From NCBI GenBank assembly GCA_030390025.1, contig CM059434.1, forward strand, positions 10,602,001 to 10,666,000: a stretch of 64,000 nt of DNA, written 5' to 3'. The notes beneath the pieces were generated by a model. It saw only the letters and a list, made by a program, of their open reading frames with translations. It searched no databases and was not told the origin of the DNA. Origin of the DNA: Squalus acanthias. Lineage: Eukaryota. Shown in pieces: positions 23,377 to 30,736 of the stretch; the stretch's first letter is position 1, and each line of letters opens with the position of its first letter. The position numbers and the translations under genes were made by a program.

Positions 23377-23507
23377 CTGGAGGATCCTTGAAATATCGCA
23401 GGGTCGAGCTCCACTGTGAGCAAGCTCCACTATTTTTTGTCTGGTCGAGTCAGGCAATGGTCGACCATTAACAAACACACCGCCGAGCTGGTTCACTCCA
23501 CTGTGAC
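23377..23507 (-). CDS. pax6: Pax6 exon 5 ([44 protein letters not shown])
   Basis: 131 nt, cctag|GT...CAG|gtaaca. Confidence 0.98.
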
Positions 23508-24099
23508 CTAGGGGTAGAGCAACAGCGAACATATTCAACGGCCGAGGCGAAGAGGTACATTCAGCGAAGTCCGCTGCTCACAGCGCCCGTCCTTAATCCC
23601 GCCGGAGATCCCAATTGCAAAAAAAAAACTGACCTATAAACGCGCTCTCTTGCTCTAAACACGAAAACTGCCAATCAAAAACAGAATACCTTACGAGCAA
23701 CGAAAGCGTCGGTGTGCTAACAAATCCTCTAACCGAAAGAAACGCAACAGACCACTCAACCTGGACATTGCATTAAACCAGAGAAAGCCAACACAAGCAA
23801 GATTTTCACTAAATTGAACGAGAGAGCGCCTAATCAAGCAACTAACAATTCCTCTTAAACTGACAATGCAAACTCAACTGGATCCAAGATTACAAATGAC
23901 ACATTATCTTCCCGAAATTACAACAGATGCCCCAATGCACCAAAACAAGCCATTTTTTTGCGTTATTAAAAAAAACACCCAGAGAAGGGACAGTAATTGT
24001 AAGCGTATGGAGACTCCTAACCTGAAACTCAGGCTGGTAACCGTGTCCCTGGAGGAAGCTCCCGGCTTATGGAGAGAACCTGTTCTCCTCTCCCTAGGA

Positions 24100-24370
24100 G
24101 CGCCTGCTAAATTGGCTCCACAAAGCCCAGCCACTTAGCCATAAATAAGCTCCGAATATAGCAGGGGAGGCAAACTGATGAGGCTTGCTGACATTTGTCT
24201 CGAAAATCAAGCTAGCTGCACGTCAACTTTGAGCTTAATTTCTAGAAATAAGCGGAAGTCTCCCTGGATAGTGCACGGAAGGATAATTGAAAAGATCAGT
24301 CCCAAACACTTGTGGCAGGCATGTCACTTTATGACACTGTTCCACTTTGAAAATCGCATCGTCACGACAA
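24100..24370 (-). promoter_or_regulatory. Pax6 alpha (neuroretina, intron 4) enhancer / P-alpha region
   Basis: Minus strand GACTTCCGCTTATTTCTAGAAATTAAGCTCAAAGTTGACGTGCAGCTAG...GACAAATGTCAG closely matches the amniote alpha enhancer as I recall it. Confidence 0.8.
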
Positions 24371-26631: not shown

Positions 26632-29600
26632 CTATTGGAAAAAAAAGCAACAAAAAAAAAGTTTATTATGGTAACCTGGTGGGTGCTTTTTTTTTAAAAA
26701 AATTATATTATTGGTGCAGTTCCCTGAATTTCCCTATTTAAACCAGAATGTGCATCCGATCACTCCGCAACAATTTGACTGTTTAAAGGCATTTGGCCTT
26801 GGAACTGGGTCGCGTAAAGGTTGGACAAACATAGCAATGGGGACCGCTCCTTTTAAGACGCTGTACCTCTCTTGTGCAAAGTTCCCCCACCCCACCCCCA
26901 CCCCCCAACTCCCACCACCTATCAGATACTTTGAAGAGGGAGGTAAGAATTTCCGCCCGAATTCTATCTTACATCGCCCACAGTGAAAACACCCAATTTT
27001 ATTCAACTCAGGAACTTCGACTGAGGCCCATCCGAAAGTGCTTTGCCTCCTCGCACGGGTTTCTTGTTGTGTGCGAGAGAGTGGCCCCGATCTTATTGCT
27101 TCAGTTTCTTAATGGTGAATCTGACCAGTGCAGTCACACTGTCTCATAACGGCAGGGGCATGCGTGGAAAGTGGTCTCGTGTTTTAATACCTTGAAAATA
27201 TATTTAAACTCAGTTATTTCGTGTCTGGTTTCGGGGGGACGCGCCTTATTGTAAACCTCTGTGGTGTTTCGCCGTTGCAAATACTGTATATTATCCTGCA
27301 CTGTTTATTTTGGATAGCCCAGGAGTTCCGTGCTTTCTTTTTGGGCTCAACAACAGACTAGGCTTCCACCAAAAAAAAACTTCTTAATGTACTGTACTCT
27401 ATAAGATACTTCTGAACTTAGTTACTCTTGATTAACTTTCTTCCCTGGTCTTTAGATCTTCTTTTATGCTTAGGTATTCTGACACACGCTGTCTACCTCG
27501 CCTCAGTGCTTAAAAAGTAGTAACGGGAGGGGGTCAGAACTGATCGACAAAGACTACAGAAAGTGAACAATGCTTTCTATTCTGCTTACAGCCCAAACTC
27601 AGAGAGCAAGCCCCCCCCCCCTCTCTCCCTCCCTCCCTCCCTCCCTCCTAGGCTCCCCAGCCAGCAACACAGCGTCCAGCTAAACGCAGCGCACTCTTCA
27701 ACTCACACTCACTCAAGATAGAAGGACAAACTTTCTTCAACATCGAACAGTGACTGTGTAGAATTATTATATTTTTTTGGGGGGTTGCTTTATTTCCCCC
27801 CTCCCTCTCATTCCACCCACCACCACCGCCCCCCCCTCCCGAAATAAAACAAGTAATTTCTGTTATGAGTATCTGGAGGTAATTGTGTTGCTGGTATGGG
27901 TTGTTAAGGGTTGTAAAAAGACACAACAGCTCCGTGGGGCGCTCAATTGCGAGAAGACAATCACAATAAAGGATCTATTCAAGGGGTTTGGTAAAAGAGG
28001 GGTACAATAACGAAATAGACCAGCTTTCATTTTCTCTTTCTCGAAATACTTTATTCTGTTTGCTTTTGCCACCATAAGTATAACGCATATTGTGCCCCCC
28101 CCACCCACTATTACATCTTAAGCTAAATTCTCCAACGCTCGCCTTTCCTCCCTCCCCTCTTCTTTCTATTCATTACACACCAGCGGAAAATAATTTATAG
28201 ACTAGCTTTGTCATCTATTCCTGCACACACACACACACACCAAAAAAAATAAACTTCAAACAAACACTTTCTCTCAGCATGCAGACTTCCCTGCGTAAAT
28301 ATTTACAGCAAGGAAGGGTGACTACCTGATTACCCCAGAACTCAAGCGAGCAGGAGATACCCGGGCGTTTAACTTCTCCAACTGCAGCCAGTCCCGGAGA
28401 CTCCGAGAAAGATCATTTGTGTTTTCTCACTTTAAGCAAGGGCCGTTACATTTGCAACAATTTTCTTAAATAATAACAAAAAAAAATAAAGATTTCTTTT
28501 TTGACTGTGATGGGATTTTTTTTTCCTGCGGTATCGGAAATGCTTTCCTAATTACTCGGTTTGCAAAAAAAAAGCGATTTGTCACTTTCTGAAAAGTTCG
28601 CACGCCGTTTTATTGCCTTATCAAAATGTCTTTTTAAATTAATAATATTCATAATAAAAAGAAATCAGCAGCTGATAGCGTCCTGACATATTCCAGTGCT
28701 AGTATTTTAAGCCCACTGTTTACTATTGTCTGTTCGGTACAGTGATGAAAACAAGTGCTGAACAAGCAGTTCTCAAAGGCCCAGCCTGAGAGTCGTATCT
28801 GTATCTCCCTTTCTCTATATATAGAGATATATAGATATATATATATTAATATGTAAGCCTAACCGCGGGCGTCAAATACACCGATTGTGATCTTTCTTAT
28901 TTTGTATCTTACTGTCGATTTCGAGCCAAAATCTCACCCTTTTCCTTGGGCCTAGCCTTCCCTCAACGCTGGCCGAGGGTACATGTTATCAAGTATTGAA
29001 TTATATCTCAAAAGCACACCCGCAAATGACACAATAAACCCGCCGTTTCCTATGTCCTTTTCTGACTTTCATTTTGCTCTTTATCCTCCACATTTCTACA
29101 TTTAAAAAAAACACTGCCAACTTTTCGTGCATTTAAAAAAATGTAGAAATATTATTCCCACCTGCGCTGCTATTTCCCAGTTTCTGACTGTTAAGATGCG
29201 TGCAGTCAGTAATGGGAACACTTATACCCTTAATATGGAGAAATCTGCACTGATTTTTTTTTAAGACCATAAATTAAAAGTCTTATTTATAATAACGTGA
29301 GGATGCGGAACAGTTCGGGTGAGCGCTCATTAATTTATTATAATATCGAGTAGTTGAGGCAGATTAAATCTTACAGAGACAGATCTGTATACTTCAGCTC
29401 TTCAATGTTAAATGTCTTATTATTGCTTCTTGTTTGAAGCGGAATTTGATGTCAAATTTTCGGTCTAAATTGCGAATGCGTGTTAATATCCTCCCCAAAA
29501 ATACACATCACAGACTGATGTACTTGGCTTTCTCGCCAGGCCATGCTCGTTTTAAATGGCTATCATTATTCTTTTTTTTTAAAAAAACAAAGTTTGTAAT

Positions 29601-30594
29601 ACACTAGAATCTGGTTTGAAGCGGAGTAAGAAATATTGATCGAATGAATTCATGGAAGCCGAGCCGAGGAGAGAAGTCTCCTTTCAATTAATTAGCGTTT
29701 TAACAGGGACACATGCAGTTTTGGAGCTAACTCGCTGAGCCCATTGATTCTCGAGAAGGTAAAGCACGTTAATATCTAGATTTTTTTAAAAAAACAACCC
29801 TAACGTTTGTATAGAGTTATGATGAGTTGGAAACACTCTGTGCAAACGGCTCTAATGAATCGCCTGATTGCTTAATTCAAACTGACACTATGCATCGCCG
29901 GGTCATTGCACCTTCCTCAAACAGCGAGCTTTGGCCTAAAGTGACTTATTTTACTCTTTCTTATCATTAATAAACATCAACGACTTATAAACATGCAGAA
30001 AAAATGACGTTAGACAAGCCCACATTACAGCATCTCAAACACATTTCCAGTGACGCCTGAGTTACATTTGCCCGGGGGGTGGGGGGGTGGGGGGGAAATA
30101 AGGGGATTTTTTTAACTAAATGGTGCATCGTTCGGAAAATTATTTGTTTTCCTGTTAAAATACACGGATGCGTTGCTGCCGAATCCGATTAAAATAAATC
30201 TGTGGTCATTAATACAAGTCAAGCAGAGAGTAAACGGCTTGATGAATGGTAGATAGGAATAGAAAATAATCCACAAGTTAAAACGAGAGAATGGTCACAC
30301 AAAACGGCCGAGAATTTCGCTGAATTCCCATTGAATTTCCTAAAGATTGCCCAGCGATATATTGGCCCCCTTAAGGAGTGCACGTTTGCTCAATGCAGTA
30401 TTTCAAAATAACCTTTTCAAATGATAAAATAAATCTCGTTAAAGTGTAAAATAATGTTACACTAAATCGGAGTTAGGCAATAAATCATAGGTGGGAACTA
30501 AAGGAAACTTAGCTTTCGCTTGCGATTAAGAAATGTTAAATAAGATGCCCCAAAAGTGCAATAAATAAAATATAAGGAAAGCAAATAAACTCAC

Positions 30595-30736
30595 CTTTAT
30601 GGGGCATTCTGCGTCGCTGCCAACACGTCCTGCTAACAGTTAAGATGGGATATGACGGGCGACTTTTTTTAAGACTTGCCAGTGAATTATAGTTTCTCCA
30701 CACACACACATACACACACACAGATAGGGCAAATTC
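30595..30736 (-). other. pax6: Pax6 5'UTR exon 2 (142 nt) ending in an upstream ATG (ATGCCCCATAAAG)
   Basis: cttcgcag|GAAT...ATGCCCCATAAAG|gtgagt; human exon 2 starts GAAT and ends ATGCCTCATAAAG (from memory). Confidence 0.88.

Follow-up and report, generated by a model that had tools for sequence, protein, structure and literature searches.

The stretch analysed here, referred to as the window, is the 64,000 nucleotides (nt) from position 10,602,001 to 10,666,000 of contig CM059434.1 in the Squalus acanthias assembly GCA_030390025.1. Its minus strand carries a canonical Pax6 gene with a paired domain, a homeodomain, an exon 5a and, in exon 4, the start codon that opens the protein with MQNS, and the best-scoring proteins against these exons are the Pax6 proteins of sharks and rays. 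Our subject is the 5' end of this gene, where an ATG near the end of the leader exon 2 opens a reading frame that depends on which exon follows (Table 1; exon numbers and the label 5a are taken from the cited PAX6 papers). Joined to exon 3 (2>3), it gives an eight-codon upstream open reading frame (uORF) that ends 95 nt ahead of the main ATG. Joined directly to exon 4 (2>4), it has the main ATG 58 nt downstream and out of frame (58 mod 3 = 1), and on into exon 5 it runs for 35 codons to a stop at 23470-23468, one base off the main open reading frame (ORF), as judged from the reading frame alone. Joined directly to exon 5 (2>5), it takes up the frame of the paired box and runs through it without a stop. 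An earlier reading made from the letters of the window (the sequence-only reading) had described the 55-nt exon 4 and the 35-codon frame that overlaps the main ATG, and both were re-derived from the sequence; the human exon 4 length of 61 nt that it gave is consistent with published variant numbering (c.-52+1, c.11-2).

Table 1. Features at the 5' end of Pax6, in window coordinates.
Feature	Position	Strand	Remarks
Pax6 exon 2 (5' leader exon)	30595..30736	-	acceptor inferred from polypyrimidine-AG before 30736; run X20 contig covers 30688-30595 and splices at 30595
Upstream ATG + 13 nt (MPHK + 1 nt, phase 1)	30595..30607	-	likely relic of ancestral Pax4/6 first coding exon; ATG at 30607; the GT of the donor follows 30595
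Exon 3, 64 nt, non-canonical GC donor, carries uORF stop	26568..26631	-	both junctions present in X20 contig
TAA stop of 8-codon uORF (13 nt exon 2 + 14 nt exon 3)	26618..26620	-	95 nt upstream of main ATG; same 13+14 geometry from human coordinates
Exon 4, 55 nt (3n+1), AG/GT flanks	26206..26260	-	homologous to 54-nt exon encoding the ray-finned fish extension
Zone with one base more than ray-finned fish	26216..26225	-	peptide match to fish stops here (0/4 last residues); exact base needs fish DNA
Main Pax6 ATG (MQNS start, phase-1 exon end)	26213..26215	-	reading frame
Exon 5, 131 nt, paired box start	23377..23507	-	in frame with exon-4 ATG and with exon-2 ATG
Stop of hypothetical 35-codon overlapping frame	23468..23470	-	formed by Val-Asn codons of paired box

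We consider it likely that this exon-2 ATG is the ancestral start codon of Pax4/6, that it now opens a predicted uORF which probably damps translation, and that the loss of one base from exon 4 restored its in-frame use in ray-finned fish. Of the possible joins, 2>3>4>5 is present in one contig of run X20 (a relative, H; depth 53.4), which uses the GC-AG intron behind exon 3. On our own arithmetic (53.4 x 57/257 = 11.8), the exon-4 bin owes its entire depth to this contig. In its exon 3 the 14 letters of the uORF are the same as here, and the base directly after the stop is missing. The bin depths of run X19 fit the same four exons, although they do not prove the exon order. For the species of the window, the listing has no RNA run with this sequence, and three of its runs guessed to be RNA contain almost nothing of it, which speaks neither for nor against expression. 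The sequence-only reading had offered an overlapping uORF as one of two possible ancestral states; the ancestral default was likely the short exon 2>3 uORF instead.

Some further observations can be made on exon 3. Its start (26620-26611, minus strand) holds three successive stops in two frames, and in relative H, which is without the base at 26617, all three fall in one frame. Human non-ATG uORFs end 4 nt past the ATG uORF, which fits the arrangement of stops here. At 26540, runs X19 and X20, both guessed to be RNA, have contigs that continue past exon 3 into intron 3 before they diverge, and the diverging letters are the same in both runs. This suggests that, at the weak GC donor, intron 3 is retained or pre-mRNA was sampled.

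The exon-2 ATG has been described as a coding start in teleosts, where an N-terminal extension of Pax6 from exon 2 has been called teleost-specific (Ravi et al. 2013, PMC3554528) and is also covered by Feiner et al. 2014 (PMC4122933). Our search with the first 40 residues of the extension gave 109 matches, 73 of them with the W block, and every named one of these 73 is from a ray-finned fish, including Acipenser. The extension is also present in Huso and Polyodon, and thus in sturgeons and paddlefish, and in none of the 23 chondrichthyan-named proteins. The similarity to it that the sequence-only reading had pointed out was borne out, the exon-4 peptide of the window matching a sturgeon protein at 9 of 12 residues and five other fish proteins at 6-8 of 12. 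Some tetrapod protein annotations continue through exon 4 in the main frame; those of frog, axolotl and lizard and a further protein have 15 codons ahead of the Met, the same number as here, and those of mammals have 17, all of these lengths being 3n+1. The residues QFN before the main Met are common to frog, axolotl and this genome. A single deletion on the ray-finned stem explains this distribution of registers, whereas the alternative needs two matching insertions, and it is most likely that one base was lost early in ray-finned fish, before the sturgeon split. The 1-nt indel that the sequence-only reading had suggested therefore fits best, with the out-of-frame register common to this genome and four tetrapod groups; it had been placed in the teleosts, and this part fails because sturgeons and paddlefish share the extension.

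The opposite direction of change appears unlikely to us; here jawed vertebrates would have started out with an in-frame extension, and the gain of one base would have abolished it once in sharks and a second time in tetrapods. The frame in the window lies near that of the sturgeon (9/12) and has no stop through exon 4, and the exon-2 ATG would anciently have been a coding start. However, 16 stop-free codons are expected about half the time (our own arithmetic), the extension was not seen outside ray-finned fish among the 109 matches, and two independent gains would have had to restore one and the same register, as well as the QFN-Met context that this genome has in common with frog and axolotl. 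Additionally, the annotated first exon of lamprey Pax6-alpha is a short one of the MNNS type (PMC6925180). Among other lineages, coelacanth Pax6 was retrieved as MQNS, the sole bichir Pax6 match is without its true N-terminus, and P0419, suspected to be a cyclostome protein, is in fact from a teleost. Within the teleosts, many Pax6 models (P0171, P0177, P0183 and others) have an extra insert of 7-10 residues between exons 4 and 5, which would be a further alternative exon or acceptor, and in cod-like fish (P0188, P0189) the extension is shorter by exactly 3 codons.

The same resemblance to the fish extension had been taken as a hint of selection on the uORF product, and for this we find no support. 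The 9/12 match to sturgeon can be had with just 3 changes in 36 nt, and it breaks off at the indel zone, with none of the 4 residues beyond it matching. In a neutral simulation at assumed levels of DNA divergence, a match of 9/12 or better arose in 73% of 20,000 trials where the divergence was set to 10%, in 42% where it was 15% and in 20% where it was 20%. At most 6, 4, 8 and 5 of the 12 residues could be encoded in the overlapping frame by four tetrapod-type proteins, and axolotl cannot encode its Trp. The stop at 23470-23468 depends on synonymous codon choice at Val-Asn in the paired box, and random synonymous codons place a stop at that position in 3,116 of 20,000 trials (about 16%). When the uORF is compared across lineages for a conserved peptide, what is kept is its first four residues only. 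The 35-residue peptide is most likely a by-product of conserved exon-4 DNA and not a selected product.

A related proposal, that exon-3 skipping is a regulated and naturally used switch with the overlapping peptide or its sequence under selection, strikes us as quite unlikely. In its favour, exon 3 has a weak GC donor, exon 4 stays at 3n+1 from this genome through to mammals, where the sole length change is +6 nt, and relative H has the same exon 4 letter for letter. Yet the limits on encoding the peptide in tetrapods, the ease with which neutral change yields such a match, and the low share of random codon choices that end the frame at this position all speak against peptide selection, and in humans the skip is linked to disease. 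Regulated exon-3 skipping as a dosage brake that involves no functional peptide, a weaker version of this proposal, is conceivable.

The case for an ancestral start begins with the first four residues. Among the matches to a search seeded with MPHKG are proteins of hagfish, of two crinoids and a tunicate, of chelicerates, a millipede, crustaceans and insects, of the nematode Trichuris and of two brachiopods, and a separate representative search added a tardigrade and an acanthocephalan with such a start. The same start thus recurs in at least 7 animal phyla. Daphnia isoforms diverge directly after MPHK, which is consistent with an exon boundary there. In vertebrates, models of the 2>5 type begin with MPHKG, MPHEG or MPQKG right before the paired domain in three birds, sterlet, eel and whitefish (P0222, P0224, P0276, P0282, P0283, P0596 and P0607, RefSeq and GenBank models). 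The lamprey has both kinds of first exon, Pax6-alpha with an exon-4-like MNNS start and Pax6-gamma with one ending in YQK-G, each of phase 1 (PMC6925180 supplement), and so both types likely predate the cyclostome split. The structure entry for the PAX6 paired domain starts after the N-terminus and is uninformative on MPHK.

Further evidence comes from Pax4, which arose as a paralogue of Pax6 in the early vertebrate duplications (PMC4122933). In this genome, the first coding exon of Pax4 (L010) consists of the ATG and 10 nt more, is identical to the coding part of Pax6 exon 2 at 11 of 13 nt, and has a phase-1 GT donor and an 851-nt intron that leaves it in frame with its own paired box. A scan of 9 paired-box loci for this mini-exon pattern found Pax4 as the sole match; the scan used a 1.5-kb flank, and Pax6 exon 2, which also fits the pattern, lay outside it. 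Pax4 proteins start with MSHKD in sawshark, MSHEG in bichir, MQHRG in a bird and MQHQG in newt. The exon-2 segment of the window has what would be expected of an ancestral first coding exon, namely MxHK, a phase-1 donor and a frame continuous with the paired box. Pax4 (G000:C10:132002822-132005941) and Pax6 share a contig, on which about 121 Mb separate them.

It could be argued that the match of MPHK to invertebrate and Pax4 N-termini is a coincidence or a carry-over of annotation and that the uORF arose independently in vertebrates. Just 4 residues are involved, the splice donor also favours the last of their bases, homologues may have shaped the gene models, and the search was seeded with MPHKG. 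We nevertheless hold this to be highly improbable, given that the Pax4 exon was read directly from the DNA of this genome, that a chance match of the Pax4 pattern in about 13.5 kb has a probability of roughly 0.01 by our own estimate, and that the start is shared so widely among animal phyla.

The sequence-only reading had also named a 1-nt assembly error as a way in which the frame might be restored. The check for such an indel used contigs of 4 of the 23 listed runs, including X5, X17, X19 and X20. Run X5, which has the same species label and comes from another sample and study than the four best-matching runs, spans 25877-26430 with 0 gaps and 3 substitutions, all outside exon 4. In run X20 exon 4 is letter-identical, with 0 differences and 0 gaps. 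Run X17, from a more distant relative (F), has 12 gap letters in 26056-26310, all of which belong to one 12-nt intronic deletion at 26117. Nothing but the frame offset itself would suggest that an assembly error conceals a simple in-frame extension, and with no exon-4 indel in X5, X20 or X17 and the extension in 0 of 23 chondrichthyan-named proteins, this idea is ruled out at contig level and is hardly credible. The ray-finned fish state, an exon 4 of 3n that puts 2>4 in frame, is not found here; the 55 nt agree in three other runs.

There are several points that weigh against the ancestral start and its restoration in ray-finned fish. The first concerns the protein searches. The MPHKG-seeded search is enriched by design, so that its counts (HKG directly before the paired domain in 81 of the 120 listed matches, MPHKG in 33) overstate the frequency of this start, and in the representative search HKG is found in only 12 of 89 Pax6-like proteins, with other N-termini in 73. 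The argument for an ancestral start accordingly rests on phylogenetic spread and not on frequency. For vertebrates and hagfish alike, the MPHKG proteins come from computational gene models, and an MPHKG start is seen in 0 of the 23 chondrichthyan-named proteins. The homology itself rests on 4 residues or 13 nt together with position and phase, and the invertebrate intron positions were not taken from DNA. Other shortcomings concern the direction of the one-base change. The exon-4 lengths of tetrapods were inferred from automated protein annotations and not from DNA, and the comparison was made without Pax6 N-termini from gar, bowfin, bichir or lungfish and without the exon-4 frame of a cyclostome, which leaves the indel without an outgroup. 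Lastly, no 2>4 or 2>5 joint is present among the 15 joints listed, with 22 more outside the listing and in contigs that drop rare forms.

If the exon-2 ATG is nevertheless the ancestral start, the history of the locus could have run as follows. Exons 3 and 4 would have been interposed after MPHK, bringing with them a stop and a new start, and the old start would have turned into a brake on a dosage-sensitive gene, the translation of the uORF being predicted from its sequence. In the 2>3>4>5 form, the splicing of which is seen in a relative, the short uORF would be followed by initiation at the exon-4 start, presumably by reinitiation or leaky scanning. The 2>4>5 form would produce the out-of-frame overlap here and in tetrapods, probably repressive by analogy with the human aniridia work, and an in-frame extension in ray-finned fish, where the loss of one base in exon 4 before the sturgeon split would have made this join productive. 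The 2>5 form would encode a full-length Pax6 of the MPHKG type, which is annotated in birds, sturgeon and teleosts and is putative in this species. Met-Pro and Met-Gln starts differ in N-terminal processing, and Pax6 isoforms with an MPHK start might differ in stability from those with MQNS. We can only tentatively, and with more doubt than conviction, extend this to jawed vertebrates in general, humans included, as a three-way splice switch (2>3, 2>4, 2>5) on one ancient start that sets the dosage of Pax6. The aniridia-linked uORF would then be the ancestral N-terminus, still used at a low level, and a transcript that leaves out both exon 3 and exon 4 would escape the brake and encode full-length PAX6.

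The source study for the human PAX6 exon 2/3 uORF is said to be that of Filatova et al. 2021 (PMID 34174135). The uORF is treated in PMC7617937, PMC11062406 and PMC12822670, and the human ATG uORF is listed as chr11:31810840 to 31806912 over two exons (PMC9943669 supplement). With the donor at 31810827 and the published numbering of exon 3 (PMC7615962), it comes to 13 + 14 nt, as in this genome. Exon-3 skipping is thought to turn the human uORF into an overlapping ORF and to cause aniridia (reviewed in PMC7617937), and c.-128-2delA leads to exon-3 skipping in vitro (PMC7405610). Because skipping is linked to aniridia, the exon-3-skipped transcript is a proposed loss-of-function product in humans. 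Zebrafish cannot model this event, because the same splice is in frame there. Skipping of exon 3 alone had been set aside as harmful in PAX6 haploinsufficiency; if the three-way switch is real, joint skipping of exons 3 and 4 could raise PAX6 in that condition.

The fish extension is already known, as are the human uORF and its mechanism in disease. In the literature we searched, where most subscription papers were beyond reach, we found neither the link to an ancestral Pax4/6 start nor the pre-teleost origin of the extension nor the in-frame 2>5 form, and a prior remark on them is quite possible. Taken together these would give a disease-relevant uORF a traceable history, from what was likely a coding start in bilaterians to a regulatory uORF by way of interposed exons, and back to coding in ray-finned fish through a single base. 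They would tie the human aniridia uORF to the fish extension, which the accessible portions of the cited papers keep apart, and date the origin of the extension to before the sturgeons.

Other elements lie close to these features. At 31013-30979 on the minus strand there are two tiny tandem ORFs (7 and 3 codons) that overlap by one base, between the stop of one and the start of the other, and in human the P1 exon has two ATG uORFs, 24 and 12 nt long, that likewise overlap by one base (PMC9943669 supplement). Their length and overlap look conserved, which could equally reflect a conserved promoter element. Exon 2 also has an extra ATG at 30711 (minus strand), in a (TG)n repeat, from which an ORF of 23 codons runs to a stop in the same exon; it is probably lineage-specific. 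Further downstream, exon 5a is the 42 nt at 22946-22905 (minus strand), with the AG of its true acceptor ending at 22947. The region of this acceptor (22985-22905) is duplicated 140 nt upstream (about 23125-23070, with an AG ending at 23087), and this copy, frameshifted and without a nearby donor, is a possible decoy acceptor.

The arrangement described here can be compared with three known systems. The human PAX6 exon 2/3 uORF shares with it the ATG 13 nt before the exon-2 donor, the stop 14 nt into exon 3 and the length of 8 codons, as well as the out-of-frame overlap with the main ORF once exon 3 is lost (here a matter of reading frame only). The lengths of exons 3 and 4 differ, being 64 and 55 nt here and 77 and 61 nt in human, and the human uORF papers, in the portions accessible, neither derive the uORF from an ancestral start codon nor mention an in-frame 2>5 form. 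The teleost extension uses the same exon-2 ATG and a homologous exon-4 sequence, but it is in frame there and one base out of frame here, and its origin is not explained in the available parts of PMC3554528 and PMC4122933. The N-termini of invertebrate Pax6 or twin of eyeless and of vertebrate Pax4 resemble the exon-2 segment in having MPHK (MxHK-G), a phase-1 exon end and a frame that continues into the paired box. In those proteins, however, MxHK is the annotated coding start, whereas in the Pax6 of this window exons 3 and 4 intervene and supply the stop and the new MQNS start.

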